Assembly (NCBI GenBank): GCA_045578865.1
Contig: JAZNLB010000008.1
Span: 37,234 to 101,233, forward strand
Source of the DNA: Clostridia bacterium
GTDB taxonomy: Bacteria > Bacillota > Clostridia > UBA1381 > UMGS1253
Length of the DNA stretch: 64,000 bases
Reading direction: 5' to 3'
Shown here: piece by piece, positions 1-35,516 of the stretch
How the letters are laid out: the number at the start of each line of letters is the position of its first letter
How positions within the stretch are numbered: position 1 is the first letter of the stretch
The notes under the pieces: model-generated
What the model was told of the DNA's origin: nothing
The model's database searches: none
Seen by the model: only the letters and a program-made list of their open reading frames with translations
Position numbers and translations under genes: made by a program

Positions 1-111
1 TTCCGTTGAGTGGTAACGCAAATTTAGCGTTGCAATTTGGGTGGTACCGCGGGTGTAAGCAAAGTTTAATGCAGCGCTCGTCCCAAGTTCGTCTTGGGAC
101 GAGCGATTTTT
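1..111 (+). promoter_or_regulatory. T-box riboswitch leader, 3' portion only (stem III, T-box/antiterminator sequence, terminator). The specifier loop lies upstream of the window.
   Basis: The canonical T-box core AATTTGGGTGGTACCGCGGG is at 34-53. It is preceded by a small hairpin (15-19/27-31) and followed by a 13-bp terminator stem whose 5' arm carries the usual TCGTCCC. The RBS and ATG of the next gene follow within 30 nt. Confidence 0.85.
75..111 (+). terminator. Intrinsic terminator of the T-box leader (attenuator)
   Basis: CGCTCGTCCCAAG (75-87) pairs with CTTGGGACGAGCG (93-105) around a 5-nt loop, followed by ATTTTTA. Confidence 0.85.
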
Positions 112-137
112 ATATCTCGGTACTTAGGAGGCAAATC

Positions 138-2444
138 ATGAAACAAATCACCGGACTCGATTTTAAAATCAAGGAAATGGCCGGCCGTATTCGCGAACTC
201 AGAGAAATTGTAGGTTTAAGTGTTGAGGATATGGCCATAAAAACCGACATAACGGTCGAGGAGTATTTGCAATGCGAAAATGGTGAAAGCGATTTAAACT
301 TTGCGTTTATTTATCGTTGTGCGCTTGCATTTAATGTCGATGTAACTGATATCATCGAAGGCTCCAGCCCGAAACTGAAGTCTTACACGGTTACGCGCGC
401 AGGCGCTGGTCAGAAAATAGAACAAGCGCACGGCATGGTATATTACAATCTGGCATCTGCGTTTAAAAATCGCATTGCCGAGCCGCTGTATGTGAAAAGC
501 GAGTATGACCCTGAGGCAGAAAGAAGAGACATTGAACTGACAACGCACAATGGTCAGGAATGTGATATTATCATACAAGGTCATTTGAAAGTACAGGTTG
601 GCAGCCATAGCGTTGTCCTTGGCCCAGGGGATAGTATTTATTACGATTCTTCCACGCCGCACGGTATGATTGCTGTCGATGGTCAGGATTGTTTGTTTTA
701 TGCGATTGTATTAAATCCGACCGGCGAACCGATTCCGGAACTTCAACCGCAAAAGTTACCGGAGACACATAAAAAATCCGCCTCGATGGAAAATCCGGAA
801 ATCCGCCAGGCAAAGCGTGTATACAACAAGTATATTGATGTAGTGAAAAACGATGCCGGTACGCCGACCTCCATCACATTTAAAAACACGGAGAATTTCA
901 ACTTCGCTTTTGATGTGGTGGATGAACTCGCAAAAACGAAACCGGATAAACTGGCGATGTTACACATCGACATAAACAAGACGGAGCGCAGATTTACCTT
1001 TGCCGATATCAGCAAAGCATCCAATCGCTGTGCAAACTACTTTAAATCCATTGGCATCAAAAAAGGCGATACCGTAATGTTGGTGTTAAAGAGACACTAC
1101 CAGTTCTGGTTTGCCATGATTGGCTTAAACAAACTCGGTGCGATTGCGATTCCGGCGACAAATCAGTTGCAGGAGCATGACTTTGAGTATCGTTTTAATG
1201 CGGCGGACATTAAGACAATTTTGTGTACTGCGGACGGCGATACGGCGAACCAAGTCGATTTGGTTGCCCCGAAATGTCCGCAACTTGTAAATAAGATTAT
1301 AGTAGGCGGCAAAAGAGACGGCTGGAGAGATTTTGACGAAGAATTTATGATGTACAGTACGCACTTTGAGCGTACGGATGAGTCCCCGTGCGGTGATGAT
1401 TTGCTTTTAATGTTCTTTACCTCCGGTACTTCAGGCTATCCTAAAATTGCAGCGCACAATCATAAATATCCGCTCGGCCATTTTCATACAGCTAAATATT
1501 GGCATTGTGTAAATCCGAATGGTTTACATTTTACCATTTCAGATACGGGTTGGGCAAAATCCATGTGGGGTAAACTTTACGGTCAATGGCTTTGCGAAGC
1601 AGCAACATTTGTTTATGATTTTGACCGTTTTGATGCAGCGGAAATTCTGCCGATGTTTGCTAAATATAAAATTACAACATTCTGTGCACCGCCGACAATG
1701 TTGCGTATGCTGATAAAACAGGATATTTCTAAGTATGATTTGTCATCCGTTGAGCATATGACAACCGCGGGCGAGGCGCTCAATCCTGAAGTGTATCGTC
1801 AATTTGAAAAGGTTACAGGCTTGCAGATTTTGGAAGGATTCGGTCAGAGTGAAAGCACGATGATTATTGGTAACCTGTACGGCGCTGAACATAAAATCGG
1901 CTCTATGGGCAAGCCGAGTCCTACCTATGATGTGATGCTGATGGGGCCGGATGGCAATGAAGTTGCAGTCGGCGAAACCGGCGAAATTGTTATTCGCATT
2001 GCGGATGGTATGCCTTGCGGTCTTTTTACCGGCTACTACAAAGACGAGGAAAAGACGCGTGAGGTTATGTATGATGGTTACTATCATACCGGCGATACGG
2101 CTTGGAAGGATGAGGACGGTTTTTACTGGTTTGTCGGTCGCGTAGATGATGTAATCAAATCATCCGGCTATCGTATCGGACCTTTTGAAATCGAAAGTGT
2201 TATCATGGAACTTCCGTATGTGCTCGAATGCGGTGTATCCGCAGAGCCGGACGAGGTGAGAGGTCAGGTAGTTAAAGCAAGCATCGTGCTCGTTAAAGGT
2301 ACCGAACCTACGGAAGACCTTAAAAAAGAAATTCAGACATATGTAAAAGAGAAAACCGCACCGTATAAATATCCTAGAATCGTCGTATTCAGAGATAGTT
2401 TACCCAAGACGGTCAGCGGTAAGATTCAAAGAAACAAACTTTAA
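138..2444 (+). CDS. Fusion protein: XRE-family HTH plus cupin sensor domain joined to an AMP-forming acyl-CoA synthetase (medium/branched-chain ACSM/MacS-like)
   Basis: ATG at 138 lies behind AGGAGG (126-131). The ORF-track start at 6 would read through the T-box and terminator. The N-terminus has an HTH (IRELREIVGLSVEDMAIKTDITVEEYLQCENGES) and a cupin (GQECDIIIQGHLKVQVG...GDSIYYDSSTPHGM). The rest has adenylate-forming motifs FFTSGTSGYPK, YHTGD, SSGYRIGPFEIES and PKTVSGKIQR. Confidence 0.85.
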   Translation: MKQITGLDFKIKEMAGRIRELREIVGLSVEDMAIKTDITVEEYLQCENGESDLNFAFIYRCALAFNVDVTDIIEGSSPKLKSYTVTRAGAGQKIEQAHGMVYYNLASAFKNRIAEPLYVKSEYDPEAERRDIELTTHNGQECDIIIQGHLKVQVGSHSVVLGPGDSIYYDSSTPHGMIAVDGQDCLFYAIVLNPTGEPIPELQPQKLPETHKKSASMENPEIRQAKRVYNKYIDVVKNDAGTPTSITFKNTENFNFAFDVVDELAKTKPDKLAMLHIDINKTERRFTFADISKASNRCANYFKSIGIKKGDTVMLVLKRHYQFWFAMIGLNKLGAIAIPATNQLQEHDFEYRFNAADIKTILCTADGDTANQVDLVAPKCPQLVNKIIVGGKRDGWRDFDEEFMMYSTHFERTDESPCGDDLLLMFFTSGTSGYPKIAAHNHKYPLGHFHTAKYWHCVNPNGLHFTISDTGWAKSMWGKLYGQWLCEAATFVYDFDRFDAAEILPMFAKYKITTFCAPPTMLRMLIKQDISKYDLSSVEHMTTAGEALNPEVYRQFEKVTGLQILEGFGQSESTMIIGNLYGAEHKIGSMGKPSPTYDVMLMGPDGNEVAVGETGEIVIRIADGMPCGLFTGYYKDEEKTREVMYDGYYHTGDTAWKDEDGFYWFVGRVDDVIKSSGYRIGPFEIESVIMELPYVLECGVSAEPDEVRGQVVKASIVLVKGTEPTEDLKKEIQTYVKEKTAPYKYPRIVVFRDSLPKTVSGKIQRNKL

Positions 2445-2545
2445 TTCAAAACTCAAGTATTTGCGAGTATTTTAACACAGCAGCGGCGAAAAATTCCGAC
2501 AAAAACGGAGCGAATACTAACGCATCGGCTTAAAGGAGGCTGCAT

Positions 2546-3208
2546 ATGGAATTCAAGCGTGTTCTTCTTTTATCCGGACATTACGGCAGCGGAAAAACCA
2601 ATATTGCCGTAAATCTGGCTTTGGATTTAAAACGAAAAGGCGATGATGTGCTGATTGCAGATATTGACATTGTCAATCCTTATTTTCGCACAAAAGACAG
2701 CCAAGCGGATTTAGCGAGCGAGGGGATTGAACTGATTTGCTCGCCGTATGCCAACTCAAATGTTGACATTCCTGCTTTACCGCAGGAGATGTACAGAATC
2801 GTCGAAAAACGCGATACTTTTGCAGTTGTGGACATCGGTGGAGATGACCGCGGTGCGCTTGCGCTTGGCCGAATTGCCGATGATATCAAGGCAGAAAACA
2901 ACTATGAAATGTTTTTAGTTGTCAATGTTTACAGACCGCTTACGGCGAATTTAGAGGATATGCTTGAAGTTGTGCGCGAAATTGAGTCGGCTTCTAAGAT
3001 TCCTTTTACGGCAATTATCAACAATTCAAATCTGGGCGAGGAAACAACACCGCAGATGGTGCTTGATTCTATCCCGTTAGTCAATAAGATTGCATCTGCT
3101 TGCAACTTACCGATTAAAATGACGACGGTTAAGTCCTCTATTTATGAGGAGTTGCAAGGCAAAATTGATAATCTGTTTGCAATGGATTTACAAGATAAAA
3201 TTTTTTAA
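2546..3208 (+). CDS. P-loop NTPase of the MinD/ParA/CooC-like (SIMIBI) type, function unknown
   Basis: Walker A is GHYGSGKTN near the N-terminus and the Walker B-like strand is FAVVDIGGDD. It is 220 aa with GGAGG 7 nt before the ATG. It sits between the ligase and the oxidoreductase genes. Confidence 0.6.
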   Translation: MEFKRVLLLSGHYGSGKTNIAVNLALDLKRKGDDVLIADIDIVNPYFRTKDSQADLASEGIELICSPYANSNVDIPALPQEMYRIVEKRDTFAVVDIGGDDRGALALGRIADDIKAENNYEMFLVVNVYRPLTANLEDMLEVVREIESASKIPFTAIINNSNLGEETTPQMVLDSIPLVNKIASACNLPIKMTTVKSSIYEELQGKIDNLFAMDLQDKIF

Positions 3209-3238
3209 TAATCTAAGAATATGAGGGGGTAACTTAAA

Positions 3239-3445
3239 ATGGCAAAATTAAGTTTTAGAACTGACCTTTGCAAGGGCTGTGGTTTGTGTGTAAATGCGTG
3301 CCCGAAGCAAGTTTTGGCGCTTTCAAAAGACAAAATCAACGCAAAAGGTCATCATCCGGTAGAAGCAATAAATATGGACGCTTGTGTAGGTTGTGCATCT
3401 TGTGCAATTATGTGTCCGGATTGTATCATAACAGTTGAAAGGTGA
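3239..3445 (+). CDS. 2x[4Fe-4S] ferredoxin, delta subunit of 2-oxoacid:ferredoxin oxidoreductase
   Basis: 68 aa with two CxxCxxCxxxCP motifs (CKGCGLCVNACP, CVGCASCAIMCP), directly abutting the alpha subunit gene. Confidence 0.85.
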   Translation: MAKLSFRTDLCKGCGLCVNACPKQVLALSKDKINAKGHHPVEAINMDACVGCASCAIMCPDCIITVER

Positions 3446-3454
3446 GTGAAAAAT

Positions 3455-4522
3455 ATGGCAGAAAAAGCATTGATGAAAGGTAATGAAGCGATTGCAGAGG
3501 CTGCTATTATGGCCGGTTGCCGTTTCTATTTCGGTTATCCGATTACACCGCAGACAGAAATTGCGGCTTATATGGCAAAGAGAATGCCAAAAATTGGCGG
3601 TACATTTTTACAGGCGGAAAGCGAAGTTGCCGCAATTAACATGGTATACGGCGTTTCTTCGACAGGTATGCGTGTTATGACATCTTCTTTCAGCCCCGGT
3701 ATTTCTTTGAAAGCAGAAGGTCTTTCGTACCTTGCAGGTTCGGATTTGCCGGCGTTGATTGTAAATGTACAACGCGGTGGTCCGGGTCTTGGCGGCATTC
3801 AGCCGTCTCAGTCCGACTATTTTCAGGCTACACGCGGTTGCGGGCACGGTGACTATCACATGATCGTTTTGGCACCTGCATCTGTACAGGAAATGGCAGA
3901 TATGACGGTTAAGGGCTTCGATTTGGCGGACAAATACCGCGTTACAAGCATGATATTGGCCGATGGTACAATGGGACAGATGATGGAGCCAGTGTCTTTG
4001 GACATTCAGCCGTCTGCTCCGATTGATAAGCCGTGGGCAGTTACTGGTACCAAAAAGGCAAGAAAGCATAATATTATCAATTCTTTGTCCTTGGTTCCAG
4101 AAGAACTTGAACAACTCAACATCGCAAGATTTGAGCGCTATAAGCAAATTGAAGAAAACGAAGTTATGTATGAAGAGTACATGATGGAGGATGCTGAATA
4201 TTGCATCGTGGCGTTTGGTATTGCAGCGCGTGTTTCTAAAAACGCAATCGTTGAAGCCAGAAAGCAGGGCATTAAAGTCGGTTTGATTCGCCCGATTACG
4301 CTTTGGCCGTTCCCGAAAAAGCCGCTTTTGGCTGCAGCTGACAAGGTAAAATCCTTTATTTCTGTTGAACTTTCCATGGGACAGATGATTGAGGATGTTC
4401 AAATTGCAACACAGTTTAAAAAGCCTGTACACCTTTGTAATAGAGTCGGTGGTATGATTGTAACACCCGAACAGGTACTGGCTAAAATCAAAGAAGTTAG
4501 TGAAAACGGAGGTGCTAAATAA
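3455..4522 (+). CDS. 2-oxoacid:ferredoxin oxidoreductase alpha subunit (VorB/KorA/PorA type)
   Basis: The N-terminus MAEKALMKGNEAIAEAAIMAGCRFYFGYPITPQTEI is typical of OFOR alpha subunits. I prefer ATG 3455, 9 nt after AGGTGA, over the track GTG at 3446. Confidence 0.85.
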   Translation: MAEKALMKGNEAIAEAAIMAGCRFYFGYPITPQTEIAAYMAKRMPKIGGTFLQAESEVAAINMVYGVSSTGMRVMTSSFSPGISLKAEGLSYLAGSDLPALIVNVQRGGPGLGGIQPSQSDYFQATRGCGHGDYHMIVLAPASVQEMADMTVKGFDLADKYRVTSMILADGTMGQMMEPVSLDIQPSAPIDKPWAVTGTKKARKHNIINSLSLVPEELEQLNIARFERYKQIEENEVMYEEYMMEDAEYCIVAFGIAARVSKNAIVEARKQGIKVGLIRPITLWPFPKKPLLAAADKVKSFISVELSMGQMIEDVQIATQFKKPVHLCNRVGGMIVTPEQVLAKIKEVSENGGAK

Positions 4523-5277
4523 TGGTAGTATTTAAGAAACCTGAATCTTTGGCAGATGTGCCTCTGCATTATTGCCCGGGTTGTACCCATGGTATTGTGC
4601 ACCGTTTGGTTGCTGAAGTTATTGATGAATTGGGCATTGAGGTCAAGACAATCGGCGTAGCGCCTGTTGGTTGTTCCGTTATGGCATACAACTATTTTAA
4701 TTGTGATATGGTTGAAGCATCTCACGGTCGTGCACCGGCAGTTGCTACGGGTTTAAAGCGTGCAAATCCGGAAGATCATGTCGTATTTACCTATCAAGGT
4801 GACGGCGACCTTGCATCCATCGGTATGGCTGAAACTGTACACTCTGCAGCAAGAAATGAAAACATCACTATTATCTTCATCAACAACGCAATTTACGGCA
4901 TGACCGGCGGCCAGATGGCACCGACATCCCTACCGGGTCAGGTGACACAAACTTCTCCGTACGGCCGTGATGTAAAAGCATGCGGTTTTCCGGTGAAAGT
5001 ATGCGAAATGCTTTCCGAGCTTGAAGGTCCGGAGTATTTAGAGCGCGTAGCCGTAAACAATGTTGCTAATGTAAGAAAAGCAAAAAAGGCGATTAAAAAG
5101 GCTTTTGAAAATCAGTTAAATAACAAGGGATTTTCTTTGATAGAAGTTATCTCTACTTGTCCGACCAACTGGGGTATGACTCCGCAAAAGGCATTGGAAT
5201 GGGTGGACGAAAAAATGATTCCGTATTATCCGCTTGGCGTTTATAAAGACAGAAGCGCACAAAGCGAAGACAAATAA
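4522..5277 (+). CDS. 2-oxoacid:ferredoxin oxidoreductase beta subunit (TPP-binding)
   Basis: It has the Cys ligands CPGCTHG and the TPP motif YQGDGDLASIG...NNAIYGMTGGQ. The start overlaps the alpha stop by 1 nt (TAATG). Confidence 0.9.
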   Translation: MVVFKKPESLADVPLHYCPGCTHGIVHRLVAEVIDELGIEVKTIGVAPVGCSVMAYNYFNCDMVEASHGRAPAVATGLKRANPEDHVVFTYQGDGDLASIGMAETVHSAARNENITIIFINNAIYGMTGGQMAPTSLPGQVTQTSPYGRDVKACGFPVKVCEMLSELEGPEYLERVAVNNVANVRKAKKAIKKAFENQLNNKGFSLIEVISTCPTNWGMTPQKALEWVDEKMIPYYPLGVYKDRSAQSEDK

Positions 5278-5294
5278 AGGGGAGGGAGCATGCT

Positions 5295-5828
5295 ATGAGT
5301 ACAACACAGATTTTAATTGCCGGTTTTGGCGGCCAGGGTATTTTGTTCTCGGGTAAATTTTTAGCGTACAAAGGCCTTATGGAAGATAAAAATGTAAGTT
5401 GGCTTCCGTCCTACGGTCCGGAAATGCGCGGCGGTACTGCAAGCTGCAGCGTCATCATCAGCGATATGCCGGTTGGCTCGCCGATTGTATCCGCTCCGGA
5501 TGTCCTGGTGGCTATGAATCTGCCGTCTTTGGATAAATATGAAGACAGCGTTGTGTCGGGCGGAACGATTTTTGTTGAATCATCGCTCATAGGACGCAAG
5601 GTAAAACGCACAGATGTCAATGTTGTATATATTCCGGCAACCAAACTTGCGGCGGAAAACAAAATTGATACTTTGGCAAACATGATTATGACGGGCAAAC
5701 TTTTGGATACGCTCGGTATGTATGACGAGACTTCTGTAAGAGCAGCGCTCGGCAAGGTTGTATCTGCAAAACGCGCGGATATGCTTGAAGTAAATGTAAG
5801 TGCGCTTGAACTTGGCAAAAACTTTTAA
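5295..5828 (+). CDS. 2-oxoacid:ferredoxin oxidoreductase gamma subunit
   Basis: ILIAGFGGQGILFSGKFLA is typical of the gamma/CoA-binding subunit. It is 177 aa with GGAGGGAG upstream. Confidence 0.85.
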   Translation: MSTTQILIAGFGGQGILFSGKFLAYKGLMEDKNVSWLPSYGPEMRGGTASCSVIISDMPVGSPIVSAPDVLVAMNLPSLDKYEDSVVSGGTIFVESSLIGRKVKRTDVNVVYIPATKLAAENKIDTLANMIMTGKLLDTLGMYDETSVRAALGKVVSAKRADMLEVNVSALELGKNF

Positions 5829-5836
5829 TCGGATTT

Positions 5837-6649
5837 GTGATTGATATGAACAAACACTATATTATTGATGCACATTGTCATATATATCCCGAAAAAATTG
5901 CAGCCAAAGCAACTGCACACACGGATGCTTTTTATGGCGTAAATTCTGCGTATGATGGTTCACTTAAACAGCTGCTCGATTTCGGTAAAAAAGCCGGCAT
6001 CAGTAAATTTATTGTGCAATCGGTTGCGACAACACCGCATCAAGTGCATAGCATCAACAATTATATAGCGCACGAAATCGAAGAGAATATTGATTTGCTC
6101 ATTGGTCTTGGCACCATGCATCCGGATAGCGAAGACATCAGTGCAGATGTGGATAGAGTTGCAAACCTAGGTTTAAAAGGAATTAAAATGCATCCGGATA
6201 TTCAAGGTTTCGCTTTGGATGATGAACGATGTATGCCTTTTTATGAACGATGTCAAACGCTTGGTTTGCCGATTTTAATTCACACTGGGGATTATCGGTA
6301 TGATTACTCCAATCCGGACAGATTGATAAACATTCTTAAAACCTTTCCGAAACTTACCGTTATCGGAGCGCATTTTGCAGGCTGGTCCGTATGGGATGAA
6401 GCGTTAGAAAAGTTGTTACAATTTGACAACTTGTATGTTGATTCCTCCTCAACACTCGGTTTTGCGAAAGATACAGACAAGTTCAAAAGTCTGTTTTTGG
6501 GGTGGGGCGAAGATAGAGTATTGTTTGCATCCGATTATCCTATGTGGTCTGCAGCAGAAGAAATCAAGGTGTTGGAATCTTTGAACTTTGATGACTGCAT
6601 GTATGAAAAAATTTTTCATAAAAATGCTGAGAAAGTATTTAAGATTTAA
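5837..6649 (+). CDS. Amidohydrolase-fold (TIM-barrel metal-dependent hydrolase/decarboxylase, amidohydrolase_2-like) protein
   Basis: The N-terminal motif IIDAHCHIYPE provides metal ligands, followed by later His/Asp-rich strands (MHPD, ILIHTGD, FASDYP). It starts 8 nt after the gamma subunit stop. An alternative ATG is at 5846. Confidence 0.65.
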   Translation: MIDMNKHYIIDAHCHIYPEKIAAKATAHTDAFYGVNSAYDGSLKQLLDFGKKAGISKFIVQSVATTPHQVHSINNYIAHEIEENIDLLIGLGTMHPDSEDISADVDRVANLGLKGIKMHPDIQGFALDDERCMPFYERCQTLGLPILIHTGDYRYDYSNPDRLINILKTFPKLTVIGAHFAGWSVWDEALEKLLQFDNLYVDSSSTLGFAKDTDKFKSLFLGWGEDRVLFASDYPMWSAAEEIKVLESLNFDDCMYEKIFHKNAEKVFKI

Positions 6650-6653
6650 TTTA

Positions 6654-6683
6654 AAAAAGCGAAGGAGAACCTTTGCTTTTTTT
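6654..6683 (+). terminator. Intrinsic terminator closing the T-box operon
   Basis: AAAGCGAAGG-AGAA-CCTTTGCTTT followed by a T run. Confidence 0.7.
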
Positions 6684-6776: not shown

Positions 6777-9461
6777 ATGGCACAAAAACTAATGATAATT
6801 GATGGTAACAGTATAGCAAACCGTGCGTTTTACGGCATCAGAATGCTCACAAACAAGGATGGTCTGCCTACAAATGCTGTCTATGGTTTTATAAATATTC
6901 TCCTCAAAAATTTAGAAGATATTTCTCCGGATTATGTAACAGTTGCTTTTGATTTGAGCGCACCGACATTTCGCCATAAGATGTTTGACGGTTATAAAGC
7001 GCAGCGTAAAGGTATGCCCGACGAATTGCGTTTGCAAATGCCGCTCATTAAAGAAGTTATATCTGCCATGCAGATTCCGATTTTGGAATTGGAAGGATAT
7101 GAGGCAGACGATATCATCGGTACTATCGCGCTAAAGTGTGAGCAAAGGGGGATAGAGTGCTGTATTATTACGGGCGACAAAGATGACTTACAGCTCGCAA
7201 GTAAAACGACGAAAATTTATCTGACTACAACCTCCATGGGCAAGACAACTACGGATATATATGATGATGTTGCGGTCGAAAACAGATACGGCGTAACTCC
7301 GACGGAATTTATCGATGTAAAAGCGTTAATGGGGGATAGCTCCGACAACATTCCTGGTGTAATGGGTATTGGCGAAAAGACAGCGATGTCGTTGATTCAA
7401 AATGCAAAGTCTATCGAGGCGCTCTATGATGACCTTGCTTCTTTTGGCGTAAAAGGCGCAACGCTCACGAAACTTGAAAACGGAAAAGACAATGCTTTTT
7501 TAAGCAAAAAACTTGCTACAATCGACCGCTTCGTTCCTATGGATGACAAATTTGATTCAATGGGGAATTTTAACTGTAAAGCAAAAGAACTTTACAGTGT
7601 TTTAGTGAAACTCGATTTAAAATCAATAATAAAAAAGCTGGAACTTTCAGATGGGGTATCAGATGAAAATTCTGCATCATTAGAGTATACTTTGCCCAAA
7701 GTAAATTTTGAGCTTATAGAAGATGAGTTGCGATTAATTGAAATTCTGAAGAATACGACATTTAACGAATTCACATATATATCCTATATTCAAAATAACG
7801 CATTACAGGGCATCGGCTTTCAAATAAATAACACTGTATATCTTGCGATATGCAGTCTGCTTTTAAGCGAAAAAAGCCTTGCAGACGCATTAAAACCGAT
7901 TTTTGAAGATGCGTGTATATATAAGATTACACATAATGCCAAAAACGATATGGTATTTTTGTCCGAGCTCGGTTGCGGATATAATAATTTAGTGTTTGAT
8001 GCTGAAATTGCTGCATATATTTTAGAGCCATCTATCAGCAATTATGAAATTGCTGAACTTGCAGGAAACTTTTTAGCTTTAAGATTGAAGGATAGAGAAA
8101 CCGTATTCGGCAAAGGCAAGAAAGCAGTTGGCTTATTAGACCTTGAAACCAATGTACTTCAAGAATTTGTTTGCGGCGAACTTGGTGCTCTGACAATTTT
8201 AAGGAAAGTTTTGACGGATAAACTGGTAGAAAATGAACAACTCAGTCTCTTTAATGATATCGAACTGCCACTGATTTATGTTTTAGCGGATATGCAAATT
8301 AACGGATTTGCTGTGGATAAAGATAAATTAAATGAATTTAACGAAATGCTTGGGTTGCGTATTGATGCACTTACGCAGGAGATTTATGCCGATGCCGAAT
8401 GTGAATTTAATATCAACTCTACCAAGCAGCTCGGTGAAATTTTGTTCGACAAGTTAGGACTCAAAGCGGTTAAGAAAACCAAAACAGGTTATTCGACAGA
8501 TGCAAGTGTGCTTGAAAAGTTGCAAGGCAAACATCCGATTATCGAAAAAATCATCGAATATCGTTTAATCAGCAAAATCAAATCGACATATGGCGACGGA
8601 TTATTAAATGTAATTCATCCAAAGACCGGCAGAATACATTCCAGTTTTAATCAAACCGTTACCGTAACCGGAAGAATCAGTTCCACGGAGCCAAATATGC
8701 AAAACATTCCTGTCCGACATCCTCTGGGACGCGAAATCAGAAAGATGTTTGTTGCACAAGGCGAAGATATGTATTTAGTTGATGCAGATTATTCGCAGAT
8801 AGAATTGCGTGTACTGGCGCACATTGCCCGAGATGCAAATATGATTGATGCGTTCAAAAACAATGCAGATATCCACGCAAAAACGGCTTCTGAGGTGTTA
8901 AATATACCGATTAAGAGCGTTACACCGGAACAAAGAAGTGCAGCGAAGGCTGTCAATTTTGGCATCGTATACGGCATAGGACAGTTTAGCCTTTCGCAAG
9001 ACTTAAATATCTCCGTTTCCGAGGCAAAATCCTATATTGACGGCTACCTTGCATACTATAACGGAATTGCATCGTACATGGAGGACATTAAAAAGACAGC
9101 AGCCGAACGGGGATATGTAACGACATTGTTCGGCCGCCGCAGATATATACCCGAGCTAAAATCTTCAAACTTTAATCTTCGCGCTTTCGGTGAGCGCGTG
9201 GCACTCAATACACCCATTCAAGGTACGGCGGCTGATATTATTAAACTGGCTATGGTGCGTGTTTATACTCGCCTTAAAGCGGAAAAATTGCGTGCGAAAC
9301 TCATTTTACAGGTGCACGATGAATTGATTATAGAGTGCCCAAAGGAAGAATTAGAGCGTGTTTGTGAACTGCTAAAATATGAAATGGAAAATGTTATTCA
9401 GTTAGATGCCAAACTTGAAGCAGATGAAAAATTCGGTAAAAGTTGGTATGAAACAAAATAG
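6777..9461 (+). CDS. polA: DNA polymerase I
   Basis: The 5'-nuclease N-terminus is LMIIDGNSIANRAFYG. Polymerase motifs are A (DYSQIELRVLAH), B (RSAAKAVNFGIVYG) and C (QVHDELI). Confidence 0.97.
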   Translation: MAQKLMIIDGNSIANRAFYGIRMLTNKDGLPTNAVYGFINILLKNLEDISPDYVTVAFDLSAPTFRHKMFDGYKAQRKGMPDELRLQMPLIKEVISAMQIPILELEGYEADDIIGTIALKCEQRGIECCIITGDKDDLQLASKTTKIYLTTTSMGKTTTDIYDDVAVENRYGVTPTEFIDVKALMGDSSDNIPGVMGIGEKTAMSLIQNAKSIEALYDDLASFGVKGATLTKLENGKDNAFLSKKLATIDRFVPMDDKFDSMGNFNCKAKELYSVLVKLDLKSIIKKLELSDGVSDENSASLEYTLPKVNFELIEDELRLIEILKNTTFNEFTYISYIQNNALQGIGFQINNTVYLAICSLLLSEKSLADALKPIFEDACIYKITHNAKNDMVFLSELGCGYNNLVFDAEIAAYILEPSISNYEIAELAGNFLALRLKDRETVFGKGKKAVGLLDLETNVLQEFVCGELGALTILRKVLTDKLVENEQLSLFNDIELPLIYVLADMQINGFAVDKDKLNEFNEMLGLRIDALTQEIYADAECEFNINSTKQLGEILFDKLGLKAVKKTKTGYSTDASVLEKLQGKHPIIEKIIEYRLISKIKSTYGDGLLNVIHPKTGRIHSSFNQTVTVTGRISSTEPNMQNIPVRHPLGREIRKMFVAQGEDMYLVDADYSQIELRVLAHIARDANMIDAFKNNADIHAKTASEVLNIPIKSVTPEQRSAAKAVNFGIVYGIGQFSLSQDLNISVSEAKSYIDGYLAYYNGIASYMEDIKKTAAERGYVTTLFGRRRYIPELKSSNFNLRAFGERVALNTPIQGTAADIIKLAMVRVYTRLKAEKLRAKLILQVHDELIIECPKEELERVCELLKYEMENVIQLDAKLEADEKFGKSWYETK

Positions 9462-9474
9462 GGGAGTTAAGTTT

Positions 9475-10068
9475 ATGTTGGTCATAGGTATTACCGGCGG
9501 TAGCGGTAGCGGAAAATCCTATATATGCAATGCATTGAGAAAGAACGGATATCACATCATTGATGCGGACCAAATTGCTCGCGAAATTGTTATGCCGGGC
9601 AGACCTGCTTTGCAAGAGATTTTGTCCGCATTTGGGAATGATATACTTTTTGATGATGGTTCGTTAAATCGAAAAGCACTGGGTAAAATAGTGTTTTCAA
9701 ATGCAGATAAATTGCAGACTTTAAACGAAATTACGCATAAATATATTATTAAACAGATAAAAAACGATGTGCAAACATGTAACAGTCAATGTTGTGTAAT
9801 AGATGCTCCGTTGTTATATGCGTGCGGCTTAGACGCATTGTGTGATGTGGTAATCGGCATTACTGCCTCGCGTGATATTCGTGCACAGCGAATTGTTTTA
9901 CGGGACAATATATCGCAGTCAGATGCACTTGAGCGTATTTGTGCACAATCAGATATCGACGACAGTTTAAATTGTGCAGATTTAATTATAGATACCTCAC
10001 ACAATCCTTCAGCTGCCGATTTGCTCGTGCGTATTTGTAATTTTATCGAAGGAGTGTCCAATGAATAA
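9475..10068 (+). CDS. coaE: Dephospho-CoA kinase
   Basis: MLVIGITGGSGSGKS is the P-loop at the N-terminus. ATG 9475 follows AGGGGAG. The track start at 9406 overlaps the polA 3' end. Confidence 0.9.
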   Translation: MLVIGITGGSGSGKSYICNALRKNGYHIIDADQIAREIVMPGRPALQEILSAFGNDILFDDGSLNRKALGKIVFSNADKLQTLNEITHKYIIKQIKNDVQTCNSQCCVIDAPLLYACGLDALCDVVIGITASRDIRAQRIVLRDNISQSDALERICAQSDIDDSLNCADLIIDTSHNPSAADLLVRICNFIEGVSNE

Positions 10069-12875: not shown

Positions 12876-14660
12876 TCATTTAGTTGTATTTGTTTTTATA
12901 AACAATTCATCAAGTTGTTTTTCATCGACTTCTGCCGGCGCATTCGTCATTAACTCGGATGCGTTTTGTACTTTCGGAAATGCAATTACTTCACGAATGG
13001 ACTCTGCCCCGGTTAACAACATTACAAAACGGTCCAGTCCGTATGCCATGCCGCCGTGTGGCGGTGTGCCATACTTAAATGCTTCAAGTAGATAACCAAA
13101 TCTCGCCCATGCCTCTTCTTTGGTAAAGCCAAGCGCCTCAAACATCTTCTGCTGCAATTCTGTGTTAAAGATACGAATACTGCCGCCACCGAGTTCGCAA
13201 CCATTTAAAATGATATCGTATGCTTTTGCGCGAACCTCCTGCGGTTTTGTATCAAGCAAGTCTATATCTTCATCCATCGGCGCAGTAAACGGATGGTGCT
13301 TTGCTACATATCTATCCTCTTCCTCACTGTACTCGAAGAGCGGAAACTCAGTTACCCACAAAAGATTGAACTGGTCTTTGCTTGTTAAGTTCAAGCGTTT
13401 TGCAATTTCGCAGCGAAGAGCGCCGAGTGCATCAAACACAACATTGTCCTGGTCGGCAACAAACAATACGCAGTCGCCCGCAACGGCCCCTACCCTGTCA
13501 CAAATCGCTTTTAATTCAGTTTCATCAAAGAATTTTGCTATCGGCGAGCGGTATGTGCCATCCGCTTCGCAAACCATCCATGCAAGACCTTTTGCTCTGT
13601 ATGTTTTTACAAATTCACCAAGTGCATCAAAATCCTTGCGGCTAAATGCAGTAGCGCCGCCGTCTACTTTGATGGCACGCACGCTTCCGCCGTTGTCTAC
13701 AGCACCTTTAAACACGCCAAAACCACAGTCTTTTACCAAATCACTGATATTGTTGAGTTCAAGACCAAAGCGTGTATCCGGCTTATCGGAACCGAAGCGC
13801 TCCATTGCCTCTTTATAGGTCATGCGCTTAAACGGAACCGGCACATCAATGCCCAAAGTCTCTTTAAATACGCGCGCAATCATACGCTCGTTTACGGAGA
13901 TGACATCATCAATTTCTACAAATGACATTTCAAGGTCAATTTGTGTAAATTCCGGCTGACGGTCAGCGCGCAGGTCTTCGTCACGGAAGCACTTAACAAT
14001 CTGAAAATACCGGTCCATACCAGATACCATCAAAAGTTGTTTGTACTGCTGAGGAGACTGCGGCAGTGCATAAAAACTGCCCGGATGTACACGACTGGGC
14101 ACGAGATAATCTCTTGCGCCTTCCGGTGTACTTCTTGTAAGCATCGGCGTTTCAATCTCAATAAAGCCATTCTCATCATAGAAATCGCGCGCAATTTTGG
14201 TTAATTTATGGCGCAGAATTAAGTTTTGCTGCATCGGCGCACGGCGCAAATCCAAGTATCTGTACTTTAAACGCAGTTCATCTTTAACATCTGTCTCCGT
14301 CTTGATTTCAAACGGTGTAGTTTCAGCTTTGTTTAAAATACGAAGTTCACTAACCTTGATTTCAATCATACCGGTCGAAATCTTGGGGTTCGGCGAACTG
14401 CGCTTTACCACTTCGCCCATAACGGCCAAAACATATTCTGTGCGGATGGTTGCTGCCTTTTCAAAAATTTGTGCATCAATATCCGTGTCAAACGAAAGTT
14501 GAACGATACCGCTGCGGTCACGCAAATCAATAAAGATTAAAGAGCCAAGATTACGATAAACATCTGCCCAGCCCATAACCGTAACAGTTTCGCCAATGTT
14601 ACTTTCGGATAAATTTCCGCAATAATGCGTGCGTTTCATACCCTGCAATGTATCCATCAC
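12876..14660 (-). CDS. aspS: Aspartate--tRNA ligase
   Basis: Class II motifs FYALPQSPQ, FTQIDLEMSF and GGGSIR. 594 aa. Confidence 0.97.
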   Translation of the reverse strand: MMDTLQGMKRTHYCGNLSESNIGETVTVMGWADVYRNLGSLIFIDLRDRSGIVQLSFDTDIDAQIFEKAATIRTEYVLAVMGEVVKRSSPNPKISTGMIEIKVSELRILNKAETTPFEIKTETDVKDELRLKYRYLDLRRAPMQQNLILRHKLTKIARDFYDENGFIEIETPMLTRSTPEGARDYLVPSRVHPGSFYALPQSPQQYKQLLMVSGMDRYFQIVKCFRDEDLRADRQPEFTQIDLEMSFVEIDDVISVNERMIARVFKETLGIDVPVPFKRMTYKEAMERFGSDKPDTRFGLELNNISDLVKDCGFGVFKGAVDNGGSVRAIKVDGGATAFSRKDFDALGEFVKTYRAKGLAWMVCEADGTYRSPIAKFFDETELKAICDRVGAVAGDCVLFVADQDNVVFDALGALRCEIAKRLNLTSKDQFNLLWVTEFPLFEYSEEEDRYVAKHHPFTAPMDEDIDLLDTKPQEVRAKAYDIILNGCELGGGSIRIFNTELQQKMFEALGFTKEEAWARFGYLLEAFKYGTPPHGGMAYGLDRFVMLLTGAESIREVIAFPKVQNASELMTNAPAEVDEKQLDELFIKTNTTK

Positions 14661-15928
14661 ATATCACCTCTGTTAATTTCTTTAATTTTTTCCGGTATCG
14701 CATTTAGGGCAACCGAAGCCTTCTCCCCCGTCTGCATGTTCTTTAATTCCGCTATGCCGGATTTAACCTCATCATCGCCAAGAACAATCGTGTACTTTGC
14801 GCCGATTTTGTCTGCATATTTCATCTGCGCCTTAAGGCTTCTGCCGATTCTGTCCTTCTCAGCATAAATGCCCGCACCGCGTAATACATATACGAGTTTT
14901 TCGGCCTCAATATCAGCGTTTTCGCCTAAACTTGAAATATAAATGTCAGGTTGAGTTTCGATTTCAAGCGCAACACCTTTGGATTCTAAAGTTAAAATCA
15001 GTCGCTCAATACCCATGGCAAAGCCGATACCCGGCGTTTGAGGTCCCCCAAGCTCCTGTACAAGACCATCATAACGACCACCGCCGCAAACGGTGCTCTG
15101 TGCACCGATATCCTCAGCTACAAATTCAAATACCGTTTTTGTGTAATAATCCAATCCGCGAACAATATCCGGATTAATTTTATATTCAATGTTAAGCGCA
15201 TCCAATCTCGTTTTAACACCTTCAAAATGTGTAGAACACTCATCACATATATGATCAATCAACTTCGGTGCATCTTTTGCCAGTTCGCCGCAAATCGGGG
15301 ATTTACAATCCAGGATGCGAAGCGGATTTCTCTCCAAGCGACTCTTGCATGTATCGCAAAGTGTATCATAATGTGCTTTGAAATAAGCAATCAATTTCTC
15401 ATTATACGCTTTACGGCAAGTTGGGCATCCGATAGAATTTAAATTCAAAACAACAGACTTTAGCCCGATTTCAGATAACAACATGTGTACGAGGGAAATA
15501 ATCTCGGCGTCAATCGTCGGATTTTGAGAGCCAAAAACTTCAACGCCGAATTGATGGAACTCTCTAAGTCTGCCCGCCTGCGGTTTTTCGTATCTGAAAC
15601 ACGGAATAATATAAAATTGCTTTACCGGAAGCGGATTTGCATACATATTACGCTCAATATATGCTCTGGCAACAGATGCCGTACCTTCAGGGCGCAAAGT
15701 AATGCTTCTGTCCCCTTTATCAGTAAATGTATACATCTGTTTTTCAACAACATCCGTCGTATCGCCAACACCACGCAAAAAAAGCTCCGTGTGTTCAAAT
15801 GTCGGTGTCATAATCTCGGTATATCCAAAGCGCGCGCAAACCGAACGCATCTTTGATTCCAAATATTGCCAAAGATTGCTCTTTGGATAAAATATGTCAT
15901 TTGTGCCTCTTGGTGCCTTCGTTAACAT
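14657..15928 (-). CDS. hisS: Histidine--tRNA ligase
   Basis: TLRPEGTA, RGLDYYT and CGGGRYD motifs. It overlaps the aspS start by 4 nt. Confidence 0.97.
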   Translation of the reverse strand: MLTKAPRGTNDIFYPKSNLWQYLESKMRSVCARFGYTEIMTPTFEHTELFLRGVGDTTDVVEKQMYTFTDKGDRSITLRPEGTASVARAYIERNMYANPLPVKQFYIIPCFRYEKPQAGRLREFHQFGVEVFGSQNPTIDAEIISLVHMLLSEIGLKSVVLNLNSIGCPTCRKAYNEKLIAYFKAHYDTLCDTCKSRLERNPLRILDCKSPICGELAKDAPKLIDHICDECSTHFEGVKTRLDALNIEYKINPDIVRGLDYYTKTVFEFVAEDIGAQSTVCGGGRYDGLVQELGGPQTPGIGFAMGIERLILTLESKGVALEIETQPDIYISSLGENADIEAEKLVYVLRGAGIYAEKDRIGRSLKAQMKYADKIGAKYTIVLGDDEVKSGIAELKNMQTGEKASVALNAIPEKIKEINRGDM

Positions 15929-16574: not shown

Positions 16575-19013
16575 TCAACAGATAGCTCCGGACCCATTTG
16601 GTTTGGTTTCTGCTACATCAGACAAATTTAATCTGAAATTTGATTTGCTTTTCTTGTTCAGCGCTATATCAAGCACCTCATCCATCGTAGATACGGGTAT
16701 GAATTTTAAGTGCTCGCTAACCGTTTTGGGAATTTTATTTAAATCGCTCATGTTTTGTTTCGGGAACAAAACCGTTTGAATGCCCGCTGCGTAAGCGGCA
16801 ATCGATTTTTCCTTCAATCCTCCAATCGGAAGCACACGGCCGCGCAGTGTAATTTCTCCCGTCATAGCAACAGAGGCTTTAACAGGTCTGCCTGTAAGTG
16901 CTGATATCATCGCAGTTGCCATTGTAATACCGGCAGACGGTCCATCTTTTGGAACTGCGCCTTCCGGAATATGACAGTGAATATCTAGTCTCTTGTAGAA
17001 ATCGCGTTCAATCCCGAACAAATCAGCATTGGAACGAATATAACTCATCGCTGCCATAGAGGATTCTTTCATGACCTCGCCGATTTTACCCGTAATCTCA
17101 ACTTTGCCGCTGCCGGGCATAGTATTGACCTCAACAGACAATGTTTCGCCACCAACCGATGTCCATGCAAGTCCCCTAGCAATACCGATTTCATCTTTTG
17201 TGTTCGCTTTTTCTATTTTATACTTTTGTGCGCCGAGATATTTTTCAACCGCAGGAGCATCAATTAAGCATTGAAACGGCATATTTTTAGCATCGGACAA
17301 CGCTTCTTTTGCAAGTTTTCTGCAAATTTTTATTATACTTCTTTCCAATTCGCGCACGCCGGCCTCGCGTGTATAGTATTCAATGATATGCGCTATTGCA
17401 TCTTCGCAAAACTCAACTGCGAGTTTGGTTTTGCTGTATTTGCCAACATGTTTAGGCACCAGATAATTCTTTGCAATTTGCAGTTTTTCTTCTGCGGTAT
17501 AACTGCCGAGTTCTATAATTTCAACGCGGTCCAAAAGCGGCAATGGAATGGTGTCTAGTGTGTTTGCTGTTGCGATAAATAACACCCTGGATAAATCGAA
17601 TGGAATTTCAACATAATGGTCACGAAACTCACCATTCTGTGCCGTATCCAACACTTCCAAAAGTGCCGAAGCCGGATCGCCGTTCATGCTTTTTCCAAGC
17701 TTATCGATTTCATCGAGCAAAATCAGCGGATTGTTGCTTTTTGCTAATTTAATTGCATTTATAATTCTGCCCGGCATCGCGCCGATATATGTTTTTCTGT
17801 GGCCTCGAATATCAGATTCATCCTTAATACCACCAAGGCAAATGCGCTGATAGTTCTTCCCCAACGCTTCTGCTACGGATTTAACCACGGAAGTTTTACC
17901 CACTCCCGGCGGACCAACAAGACAGAGTATCGGTGCATTTTGCTCCTTCGCAAGTTTTTTTGACGATAAAAACTCCAAAATTGCATCTTTTACTTCATTT
18001 AAACCATAATGATCTCGGTCTAAAATATGCTGCGCACGCAATATATCGTAATTTTCTTTTGTGGTCTTATTCCAAGGTAGAGAAATTACATAGTCTAAAT
18101 AGTTTTTCGAAACTGCAAAATCTGCGGTGTTCTGCTGCATTTTTTTTAGACGATCCACTTCTTTAAGCAGTTGTTCTTCATAACTTTTTTTAAGTTTCAG
18201 CGCACAAATTTGTATTTTAAGCTTACCAGTTTCTTCGCCTTCGCCACACAGGTTTTCTAACTCTTCATTAAATACCTTGATCTGTTCTCTCAAATAATAT
18301 TCTTTCTGATTTTTTTGGATCTGCGCCTCAACTTTATCATTGAGCTTGTGCTCAATTTCAGCAATCGCAACCTCGCTACGCAGTATTGCAACCAGCGCAG
18401 TTACACGATCTGAGAGCAAAAGCTTTTCCAATATGCTTTGCTTGGTATCTGCATCCACATCCAGGCGCGCAGCAACAGCATCCGTAATCATCGAAACATC
18501 TTTAGTTTCCAAGAGCGGAATTAAGGATTCAAACACTCTTGGATTGGTAATGGTAAAATAATCCTCGCATGCGCGTGACAAAATACGGTGCAGCACCTCG
18601 TCCAAATCCGAATCGTGCGCCTCTCCCTCATTGTCCAAAAGCTCAATTTCACTTATAAGACACGGAATTGTGCGACTGAATTTAATTAATCTGGCGCGCT
18701 GTACACCTTCAACCGTCACCATTACACTTTCACCGAAACCGCCTTGAATATTTACTACTTTTACCAAGGAGCCGATTTCGAACAAATCACTCTTTGACGG
18801 ATCCTCAACCGCTATGTTTCTTTGCGTAACCATGAAAATCGGCATATTTTTACTCATAGCATAATTAAGCGTCTTCATAGATTTAAATCTGCCGATTTCG
18901 ACCGTTAAACTAACCTTCGGAAACACAACCATACCGCGCAATGCAATCGTCGGAAATTTTGTTTGCGTACCATCTTCATTCATATATTCAAAAATTTCAA
19001 ATTCTTCTGTCAT
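16575..19013 (-). CDS. lon: ATP-dependent Lon protease (LonA)
   Basis: LON N-domain, AAA+ Walker [10 protein letters not shown], and proteolytic PKDGPSAG. The start is taken at MTEEFEIF (19013). Confidence 0.96.
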
Positions 19014-19046
19014 TTCTAAACCTCTAAATTCATAAATTATCAATTT

Positions 19047-19075
19047 ATTATATAATAAATTGTATAAAATTTCAA
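19047..19075 (-). promoter_or_regulatory. Sigma-A promoter for lon
   Basis: On the minus strand, TTGAAA (19070-19075), 17-nt spacer, TATAAT (19047-19052). Confidence 0.55.
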
Positions 19076-19103
19076 GTCTTTTAGCGAATTAAGGCATAAA
19101 TAT

Positions 19104-19138
19104 CAAAAAAAGAAACAAATTCATACGAATTCGTTTCT
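19104..19138 (-). terminator. Intrinsic terminator after clpX
   Basis: AGAAACGAATTC-GTAT-GAATTTGTTTCT on the minus strand, followed by TTTTTTT. Confidence 0.7.
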
Positions 19139-19151
19139 TTTAGTTACCCTA

Positions 19152-20459
<1,308 letters not shown>

Positions 20460-20486
20460 AGAATCACCTCATAAATTTCTCTTCTG

Positions 20487-21068
20487 TTATGCTTTAGAAA
20501 TTACCGCATCAATCAACCCGTATTCCTTCGCTTCCTGAGCGGACAAGAAATTGTCTCGTTCAGTATCTGCCTGAATTTTTTCAATAGGCTGACCCGTGCG
20601 CTCACTCAGAATTTGGTTTAGGTTGTTTTTCATTCTGAGAATTCTATCTGCATGGATTTTAATATCAGTAGCCTGACCTTGCATACCACCAAGCGGTTGG
20701 TGAATCATAATCTCGCTGTTCGGCAAAGCAAAACGCTTTCCCTTCTCACCTGCTGCAAGCAAAAACGCACCCATACTTGCAGCCATACCGATACAAATCG
20801 TAGAAACATCGCATTTGATGTACTGCATAGTATCATAAATCGCCATACCGGCAGTAATGGAACCACCCGGGCTATTGATGTAGAACTGAATATCCTTATC
20901 CGGATCTTCACTCTCCAGGAATAAAAGTTGTGCTACTACAAGACTGGCTGTAACATCGTTTACCTCGTCGCCCAAGAAAATTATTCTTTCTTTTAACAAT
21001 CGCGAAAAGATGTCATAGGCGCGTTCACCACGATTTGTTTGTTCAATTACGGTAGGTACTAAACTCAT
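20487..21068 (-). CDS. clpP: ATP-dependent Clp protease proteolytic subunit
   Basis: Catalytic Ser context GMAASMGA and His context IMIHQP. The start is at [11 protein letters not shown]. Confidence 0.96.
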
Positions 21069-21119
21069 ATTCACACAAATCACTCCTATTTACATATTTT
21101 GTCGCCGAATACCAAATAA

Positions 21120-35439: not shown

Positions 35440-35479
35440 AAATTTTCCTCCAAAATCCGCACACATAAAACACACAAAG

Positions 35480-35488
35480 CATACGATA
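35480..35488 (+). promoter_or_regulatory. Possible sigma-K-type -10 element (CATAnnnTA) ahead of dpaA
   Basis: CATACGATA lies 29 nt upstream of the dpaA ATG. B. subtilis spoVF is sigma-K dependent. The match is short, so support is weak. Confidence 0.3.
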
Positions 35489-35516
35489 TACCAAAACATA
35501 ACAAGGAGCGAAACCT

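Follow-up and report, generated by a model that had tools for sequence, protein, structure and literature searches.

A probable valine T-box precedes genes for a branched-acid CoA ligase and a 2-oxoacid:ferredoxin oxidoreductase in uncultured Clostridia

The 64-kb stretch of Clostridia bacterium DNA analysed here (GenBank assembly GCA_045578865.1, contig JAZNLB010000008.1, positions 37,234 to 101,233; hereafter the window) opens with the 3' part of a T-box leader, followed by genes for an acyl-CoA ligase, a P-loop NTPase, the four subunits of a 2-oxoacid:ferredoxin oxidoreductase (OFOR) and an amidohydrolase-fold protein. T-boxes induce the genes behind them when their amino acid runs short; which amino acid is sensed here, and why these genes should answer to it, are the questions raised by the locus. 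Since the 1960s, anaerobes of the rumen and gut have been known to convert isobutyrate, 2-methylbutyrate and isovalerate to valine, isoleucine and leucine, and fibre degraders need these 'isoacids'. The reductive carboxylation of all three acids in rumen bacteria was reportedly described by Allison and co-workers, methanogens possess an anabolic 2-oxoisovalerate:ferredoxin oxidoreductase (VOR), and to our knowledge the responsible genes in Clostridia are still poorly defined. The isovalerate-to-leucine case has been mentioned previously (PMC7356843). Our reading, to which we give a probability of roughly 70%, is that a valine T-box attenuator controls the seven-gene unit at the start of the window and that this unit makes valine from exogenous isobutyrate. 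The features of the unit are as follows (window coordinates, all on the + strand, with the basis of each call in brackets).

1..88, +, T-box leader, 3' part (RF00230 partial match and fold); its subparts are the Stem III hairpin at about 12-33, the conserved T-box sequence at 36-53 and the antiterminator at 35-88
75..111, +, intrinsic terminator of the T-box, a 13-bp stem at 75-105 plus U-run (fold)
138..2444, +, ligase with fused helix-turn-helix (HTH) and cupin domains, 768 aa, here called 'ligB' (Pfam, NCBIfam, PDB 3ETC)
2546..3208, +, P-loop NTPase, 220 aa (Pfam CbiA, 37 bits)
3239..3445, +, OFOR delta subunit, ferredoxin-like with 2x[4Fe-4S], 68 aa (Fer4 families)
3446..4522, +, OFOR alpha subunit, VorB subfamily, 358 aa (POR_N and PFOR_II, NF005507)
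4522..5277, +, OFOR beta subunit, binding thiamine pyrophosphate (TPP), 251 aa (TPP_enzyme_C); its start overlaps the alpha stop codon
5295..5828, +, OFOR gamma subunit, 177 aa (PF01558 POR)
5837..6649, +, Amidohydro_2 (PF04909) protein, 270 aa (Pfam, 125 bits)
6653..6682, +, unit-closing terminator, a hairpin flanked by an A-run and a U-run (-15.1 kcal/mol, z -4.6)

The window leader was confirmed as a T-box with competing terminator and antiterminator folds. Rfam scans were run in gathering-score mode and, for the window and the T-boxes of two relatives (L001 and L003), also in E-value mode. In the latter mode RF00230 matched window 1-88 over model positions 146-219 with a 5'-cut flag (37.1 bits, E 5.7e-7). 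This falls below the Rfam gathering threshold of 93, as the window takes in no more than the last third of the element; the gathering-score scan returned no T-box in the window and none before ligB in seven relatives. The conserved T-box sequence, AAUUUGGGUGGUACCGCG, occupies window 34-51, with GGGTGGTACCGCG at 39-51 and TCGTCCC at 79-85. When region 34-88 was folded alone it formed the classical antiterminator helix (-18.5 kcal/mol) with a 7-nucleotide (nt) bulge, UGGUACC, at 42-48, and region 70-115 folded alone formed the terminator (-26.2 kcal/mol, z -7.2), whose G+C-rich stem of 13 bp at 75-105 is followed by ATTTTTAT. Strand 75-88 is common to both structures, as the 3' strand of the antiterminator and the 5' strand of the terminator, and the two are therefore mutually exclusive. 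Downstream of the terminator, whose T-run ends at 111, lie a ribosome-binding site (AGGAGG, 125-130) and the ligase ATG at 138. The T-box 3' half that a preliminary description of this DNA had placed 26 nt before the first gene thus stands, by its RF00230 match, its switch folds and the end of its T-run. The leader is truncated at window base 1, with Stem I and the specifier lying upstream.

The missing 5' half was accordingly read in relatives. A scan with the ligase protein, using one genome per species, yielded >582 confirmed loci, 80 of which were kept for analysis; all 80 are metagenome-assembled genomes of uncultured gut or rumen Clostridia carrying Acutalibacteraceae, Oscillospiraceae, Ruminococcus or 'Eubacteriales' labels. 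The ligB genes of these loci encode orthologues 73-95% identical to the window ligase (n=80). The closest relative, L001, has a ligase 95% identical to that of the window and matches the shared part of the leader at 131 of 140 nt. Upstream of its ligase gene are found, in order, the terminator of the preceding oxaloacetate-decarboxylase genes, a TTGACT-17-TATAAT promoter and, at 9691-9951, a T-box covering model positions 1-219 in full (90.7 bits, E 2.4e-20). The 3' side of its specifier loop reads ...CUGUAG/CUUC, in which CUUC forms a helix with the GAAG just past the K-turn UGA; the specifier codon is GUA (Val). Both Stem I (with K-turn, AG bulge and distal loop) and the specifier loop, which had been expected upstream, are thus present in the L001 leader, a check made on a 95%-identical relative and not on the window itself. 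As a side observation, L001 6903-9574 encodes the beta and carboxyltransferase subunits of a Na+-translocating oxaloacetate decarboxylase-type complex, with its own terminator before the T-box promoter.

The specifier was conserved well beyond the closest relative. Of the 80 ligB genes, 73 have the T-box core GAGTGGTACCGCG no more than 450 nt upstream, as do 53 of 57 genes for a second ligase paralog (ligA, described below). In the 73 ligB leaders the triplet and next base before the closing helix are GUA-G (65 leaders), GUA-A (5) or GUC-A (3), that is, a valine codon throughout (73/73), with a third base that varies synonymously and a following base that is always a purine. The rule for T-boxes is that the base following the specifier codon is a purine. 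The closing helix below the specifier covaries, GAAG/CUUC being replaced by GAAA/UUUC in 14 leaders and by GGAG/CUCC in 4, and compensatory changes occur likewise in the basal GGC/GCC helix and in the distal helix; overall, the alignment holds 69 orthologous leaders that have a Stem I with covarying helices. Of these helices, RNAalifold run on the MAFFT alignment found only the basal and the distal one; the middle helix was misaligned and was judged by eye only. The regular expression used for specifiers mis-parsed ∼40% of the isoleucine leaders (ATC-C-CTTC) and many leucine leaders, and these were read by hand. In the Rfam alignment of L003, GUA-G falls on the codon-plus-purine positions of the model, where the paralogous leader of the same locus has AUC-A. 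The 3' side of the Val specifier loop reads NUU-GUA-R, and in the relatives each Val T-box has a TTGACA-17-TGnTATAAT promoter of its own, right after the ligA stop codon. With full-length E-values of 1e-16 to 1e-20 these T-boxes are slightly divergent members of the class and not chance matches; for comparison, the paralogous Ile T-box of L003 scored 98.6 bits and Leu T-boxes scored 112-127 bits. Based on these leaders, the window T-box is most plausibly a valine T-box whose own Stem I lies outside the window.

The gene that this leader precedes was previously described as an acyl-CoA synthetase, which holds for its ligase domain (aa 251-768) but not for the whole protein, since residues 1-205 comprise an XRE HTH and a Cupin_2 domain. 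The ligase domain belongs to the Macs/MbcS-like AMP-forming acyl-CoA synthetases (AMP-binding, PF00501, 209 bits; AMP-binding_C, PF13193, 73 bits) and is 53% identical over 514 aligned residues to the M. acetivorans Macs enzyme (MacsMa, PDB 3ETC, E 1e-184 to 4e-184). With MbcS as its top NCBIfam match, it agrees with the ACSM/MacS-like branched-chain type first assigned to it. MacsMa prefers 2-methylbutyrate; where Acs has a Trp closing its acetate pocket, MacsMa has a Gly, and Trp259 assumes that role (PMC10455477). The motifs EGFGQSE and AKYWH of the window ligase align with EGFGQTE and AKYWQ of MacsMa, and both pocket features are kept. The acids selectively activated by S. aureus MbcS are 2-methylbutyrate and isobutyrate, isovalerate being a poor substrate (PMC10026030). 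Both of the closest characterised relatives therefore prefer alpha-branched acids that match isoleucine and valine, which fits the assignment of the T-boxes to these two amino acids; the same preference also fits the finding, taken up below, that a Leu T-box stands before a LeuA-like gene and not before a Macs-like ligase.

A neighbourhood search with the fused ligase, which had been proposed as a check, turned up a second ligase paralog behind an Ile T-box. In most relatives this tandem HTH-cupin-ligase gene, ligA, lies directly upstream of ligB and encodes a protein 61-68% identical to it; its leader contains a T-box of its own, with a specifier that is invariantly AUC (Ile). In L003, for example, the Ile T-box occupies 7026-7274 and ligA 7324-9588. 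The base after AUC is A, C or G in the ligA leaders, such that the purine rule is relaxed there. Among 58 ligA and 80 ligB proteins only ten positions are fixed differently, and three of these fall in the catalytic domain.

Position 473 (codon at window 1554-1556): Ala in ligB, Gly in ligA, Gly in MacsMa
Position 476 (codon at window 1563-1565): Met in ligB, Leu in ligA, Val in MacsMa
Position 575 (codon at window 1860-1862): Met in ligB, Leu in ligA, Val in MacsMa

Ala473, Met476 and Met575 are invariant in 78-79 Val-type ligases, and Gly, Leu and Leu in 54 Ile-type ligases. Position 473 directly follows the GW of the DTGW motif and is what we take to be an acyl-pocket position in Acs. The bulkier residues of the Val-type ligase are suggestive of a tighter pocket with a preference for the smaller C4 acid, and the three positions may be determinants of C4 versus C5 preference, for which they are our candidates. 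Isobutyrate is the predicted substrate of the window ligase, on the indirect evidence of the T-box specifier and this residue signature.

Two further observations concern the relation between the paralogs. The Ile (∼7165-7250) and Val (9850-9935) T-boxes of L003 share ∼81 identical nt, from stem II/III through the core, and differ in their Stem I regions and specifiers; this suggests either that the leader was duplicated with the ligase and then changed its specifier, or gene conversion. At six loci (L038, L058, L062, L063, L066 and L078) ligB follows ligA after ∼14-57 nt with no T-box between them, and there the two genes appear to share one leader. Some of these six loci have a further, distant ligase gene upstream.

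The genes downstream of the ligase were examined in the window and in a tblastn census of the relatives. The seven same-strand ORFs of the window are separated by 101, 30, 0, -1, 17 and 8 nt, no terminator was detected between 2444 and 2546, and the only hairpin closing the unit is that at 6653-6682, so the compact, singly terminated unit first described is borne out, as are the P-loop NTPase, the four OFOR subunits and the amidohydrolase-fold protein (Pfam/NCBIfam). The dominant order in the relatives is Ile T-box, ligA, promoter and Val T-box, ligB, P-loop gene, delta, alpha, beta, gamma and ilvE. In the median case 12 nt separate ligB from the P-loop gene, and the OFOR genes are therefore co-transcribed with ligB in the relatives; for the 101-nt gap of the window, co-transcription is presumed. 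The gene after gamma encodes a true branched-chain amino acid aminotransferase (BCAT; NF009897, 486 bits against a cut-off of 307; TIGR01123, 410 against 250), which in some loci lies between ligB and the P-loop gene instead. The window represents a reduced variant, whose 64 kb contain no ligA, ilvE or leuA-like gene; the slot right after gamma, held by IlvE in most relatives, is taken by the Amidohydro_2 gene, and polA starts downstream of the unit at 6777. L001 likewise lacks ligA.

The OFOR was earlier called Vor-like with four subunits. The four-subunit architecture stands, and the alpha subunit exceeds the cut-off of the 'VorB' model NF005507 (542 bits, cut-off 399), whereas beta, gamma and delta are most like 2-oxoglutarate or generic OFORs and score below their cut-offs; delta matches OGOR_delta and PorD_KorD and beta matches PorB_KorB-type models, all sub-cut-off. 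The archaeal VOR alpha model gives only 75 bits on the window alpha subunit. Given these mixed subunit scores, the substrate assignment of the OFOR rests chiefly on context, from which we infer both 2-oxoisovalerate chemistry and the reductive direction. Across the relatives, the specifier agrees with the genes it serves, as valine codons stand before a ligase of alpha-branched type, a VorB-type OFOR and IlvE.

Taken together, the parts would operate as follows. With tRNA-Val charged, the leader would form the 75-105 terminator and transcription would stop before the ligase gene. When valine is scarce, the anticodon of uncharged tRNA-Val would pair with the GUA specifier in Stem I (as read in L001), its free 3' NCCA end would pair with UGGU in the bulge at 42-48, the antiterminator at 35-88 would be stabilised and RNA polymerase would read through. 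The ligase would then convert isobutyrate, ATP and CoA to isobutyryl-CoA, the VorB-type OFOR would combine isobutyryl-CoA with CO2 and reduced ferredoxin to give 2-oxoisovalerate, and a BCAT, encoded in the operon of most relatives and presumably elsewhere in the genome of the window, would make valine. In the relatives 2-oxoisovalerate might also feed leucine synthesis through a LeuA-like enzyme under Leu T-box control. The anabolic direction is coherent since the T-box induces under valine shortage, when an oxidative VOR would destroy the precursor, and it agrees with the long-known physiology of rumen bacteria and methanogens. A catabolic role, in which valine is degraded for ATP, was considered and rejected in view of induction of the T-box on starvation together with the AMP-forming ligase.

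Several observations nonetheless weigh against the isobutyrate-to-valine reading. The window has no Stem I of its own, so that its specifier is inferred from L001, and even the full Val T-boxes of L001 (90.7 bits) and L003 (77.9 bits) score just under the gathering threshold of 93. The best NCBIfam match of the ligase, MbcS, reaches 440.5 bits and is under the equivalog cut-off of 850; judged by sequence, the ligase is best regarded as a relative of MbcS and not as an MbcS equivalog. The beta, gamma and delta subunits are under every NCBIfam cut-off and score best on 2-oxoglutarate or generic models, and the closest solved relatives of alpha are generic or 2-oxoglutarate enzymes (PDB 1yd7, E 2e-62). 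The gap between the ligase and P-loop genes is 101 nt in the window versus the median of 12 nt in relatives. No aminotransferase or IlvE homologue was found by tblastn in the 64-kb window, an absence that the preliminary description had noted, with IlvE inside the operon in most relatives. Lastly, eight relatives have a Val T-box and ligase with no OFOR within the fetched flanks (L031, L041, L065, L067, L068, L073, L074 and L076); in these, either the OFOR lies elsewhere in the genome or the ligase has another use. At L031, polA directly follows.

One alternative is salvage of a lipid primer, in which isobutyryl-CoA would mainly prime iso-branched fatty acids (as with MbcS in S. aureus), low valine would signal a lack of primers derived from keto acids, and the OFOR would be oxidative or not act for valine. 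MbcS is after all the best curated family for the ligase and has a demonstrated role in primer supply (PMC10026030), and at the eight loci with a T-box and ligase and without an adjacent OFOR such a use is plausible. At most loci, however, the OFOR follows within ∼12 nt of the ligase and is in turn followed by the BCAT, which marks an amino-acid route and not a lipid one, and an oxidative OFOR under valine starvation would consume the valine precursor. We consider the lipid-primer explanation unlikely for the unit as a whole, although one use of isobutyryl-CoA does not preclude the other.

It is also quite unlikely that the T-box controls the ligase gene only, with the P-loop, OFOR and amidohydrolase genes forming a separate unit driven by a promoter in the gap 2445-2545, in which case the OFOR could be a general pyruvate or 2-oxoglutarate oxidoreductase. 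The unusually long 101-nt gap, compared with the 12-nt median, does leave room for an internal promoter, and both the delta, beta and gamma scores and the closest solved alpha structures are those of 2-oxoglutarate or generic enzymes. Yet the stretch 2444-2546 contains no terminator, the corresponding gap in relatives is typically 12 nt or the genes overlap, the order of ligase, P-loop and OFOR genes is kept in nearly all sufficiently long loci, and alpha exceeds the VorB subfamily cut-off.

The weakest alternative, that the specifier is read in another register, as UGU (Cys), and that the operon answers to a different amino acid, is very improbable: all 73 leaders do have an invariant TGT starting one base before GTA, but Rfam places GUA and not UGU on the codon position, the next base is a purine in 73/73 leaders in the canonical register and A or C in the -1 register, the paralog leaders read CAU or UAU (two amino acids) in the -1 register against an invariant AUC in the canonical one, and the bulge UGGU pairs with a discriminator A73, which mismatches the U73 of tRNA-Cys. 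The discriminator is A73 in tRNA-Val and U73 in bacterial tRNA-Cys, so that the bulge fits tRNA-Val and argues against the UGU register.

A valine T-box and an isobutyrate-to-valine pathway do not explain everything in the unit; the HTH-cupin module, the P-loop NTPase and the amidohydrolase lie outside this model. The XRE-type HTH (aa 13-75) and the Cupin_2 domain (aa 132-190) are fused N-terminal to the ligase (Pfam), and the resulting module of ∼235 aa (window 138-842) is conserved within each paralog group, in ligB at 72-76% identity. Between the Ile- and Val-type paralogs the HTH is 45% and the cupin 53% identical, compared with 74% for the catalytic domain, and seven of the ten group-specific residues lie in the N-terminal module (positions 54, 60, 73, 78, 97, 102 and 112). 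This greater divergence, along with the placement of those residues, suggests a paralog-specific ligand or operator. Stand-alone HTH-cupin relatives of ∼185 aa exist at 35-42% identity, from which it follows that the module derives from a one-component regulator. No conserved HTH operator was found in the 110 nt upstream of 68 Val T-boxes, where only the TTGACA-17-TGnTATAAT promoter is conserved.

The P-loop protein, annotated as 'hypothetical protein' in the sources, has the Walker A motif GHYGSGKT and belongs to the SIMIBI class (CbiA/ParA-like), and its gene is kept between the ligase and OFOR genes in the relatives. A search of the PDB gave no sequence match for it. Its AlphaFold2 model has a predicted local distance difference test (pLDDT) score of 85, and Foldseek matched it to FtsY/Ffh, ATPase-type HypB, MipZ and ParF with template-modelling (TM) scores of 0.5-0.6. 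A role as an Mrp/ApbC-type Fe-S carrier is unlikely, as the protein has no CXXC or Cys motifs; our guess is an accessory or maturation role for the OFOR. Jointly, the ligase might be a two-signal device and the SIMIBI-class NTPase a dedicated OFOR accessory factor, a combination that we regard as doubtful. Under it, tRNA charging would be read by the T-box and promoter activity set by the HTH-cupin module, which may be a DNA-binding sensor for the amino acid or for the branched acid or its adenylate or CoA ester. If so, the pathway would be made only when valine is short and isobutyrate is available. Hints in this direction are the conservation of the module within each paralog group, its divergence between the groups and its share of the group-specific residues.

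The Amidohydro_2 protein has the TIM-barrel fold of metal-dependent hydrolases and decarboxylases, with weak PDB matches to 3irs and LigW; a comparison with NCBIfam gave no match. Related genes were observed in a third unit, present at ∼25 loci, in which a Leu T-box (CUC or CUG) precedes a LeuA-like gene, a CoA ligase fused to a TIM barrel and an Amidohydro_2 gene whose product is 45-55% identical to the window 5837-6649 protein. In L003 these lie at 16680-16912 (Leu T-box), 16997-18376 (LeuA-like), 18380-20878 (fusion ligase) and 20900-21694 (Amidohydro_2). The LeuA-like protein is short, with HMGL-like and LeuA_dimer domains, and falls under all LeuA equivalog cut-offs. The fusion protein, of 832 aa, combines a xylose-isomerase-like TIM barrel with a fatty-acid CoA ligase.

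Where annotated, the rest of the window encodes housekeeping functions (coaE, aspS, hisS, lon, clpX, clpP, tig, pcrA-like, metH and MTHFR). The hisS and aspS genes lie in tandem on the - strand (12876-15928), and hisS is only ∼45 nt away from its upstream neighbour. Synthetase genes of the hisS/aspS type are often T-box regulated in Firmicutes; at the Rfam gathering score no further T-box was found elsewhere in the window, including around hisS/aspS. Three ORFs of 230-386 aa near metH/MTHFR, all on the - strand (27183-28343, 30759-31451 and 34387-35499), had no Pfam match at E 1e-5. Among the relatives, L004 carries a Gut-1 RNA (RF01706, 72.8 bits) at 2000-2076, ∼5 kb upstream of the ligase cluster.

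The value of the locus lies in the specifier, a label built into the leader, by which one of the tandem ligase paralogs is assigned to valine and the other to isoleucine, and both are tied to one OFOR and one BCAT across hundreds of uncultured gut and rumen Clostridia. More than 8,000 related proteins were found. The module yields candidate isobutyrate-CoA and 2-methylbutyrate-CoA ligases, offers a possible metagenome marker for branched-acid cross-feeding and gives a directly testable genetic handle on an old physiological observation. With it, salvage by reductive carboxylation would join de novo synthesis, transport and tRNA charging in the T-box regulon, and the HTH-cupin fusion and the conserved P-loop gene are further leads. 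Our literature searches returned no paper linking T-boxes to this gene set, in keeping with the earlier impression that it had not been described as a T-box regulon member; the classic 2008-2009 surveys (Vitreschak, Gutierrez-Preciado) were outside the search, and a prior mention there is possible. As far as the literature was searched, the new elements are specifier-matched T-boxes before paralogous branched-acid ligases and their coupling to an OFOR and a BCAT, and likewise the HTH-cupin-ligase fusion, the conserved P-loop partner and the spread of the module in gut and rumen Clostridia. The RNA itself is an ordinary, slightly divergent T-box, the enzymes come from known families, and the mechanism as such is not new.

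The nearest known systems are the T-box operons for branched-chain amino acids in Firmicutes, such as ilv-leu of B. subtilis with its Leu T-box, which use the same RNA class and the same logic of induction on starvation, and share the specifier-plus-purine arrangement, the UGGN bulge and the competition between terminator and antiterminator. Unlike operons of the ilv-leu type, the window unit places a CoA ligase and a ferredoxin-dependent OFOR under this control instead of the acetolactate pathway, and its relatives have separate Ile and Val T-boxes before tandem ligase paralogs; the 3' side of the specifier loop also reads NUU-GUA-R here versus the usual GAA-codon-A. Compared with MacsMa and MbcS, both of which prefer alpha-branched short acids, the window ligase keeps the Trp259 equivalent (KYW) and the pocket Gly of MacsMa, whereas those enzymes lack the N-terminal HTH-cupin module of ∼235 aa and the window ligase is T-box regulated and operonic with an OFOR. 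With VOR, including the anabolic VOR of methanogens, the window OFOR shares the delta/alpha/beta/gamma set, the TPP-binding beta and the two-cluster delta subunit, yet in sequence it resembles the Kor/generic bacterial OFOR clade more than archaeal VOR, and a conserved P-loop gene precedes it. Finally, enzyme-repressor fusions of the BirA type resemble the window ligase, by analogy only, in carrying an HTH on the same polypeptide as an adenylate-forming ligase; there is no homology, and the HTH of the window ligase is of the XRE type and is accompanied by a cupin sensor domain.

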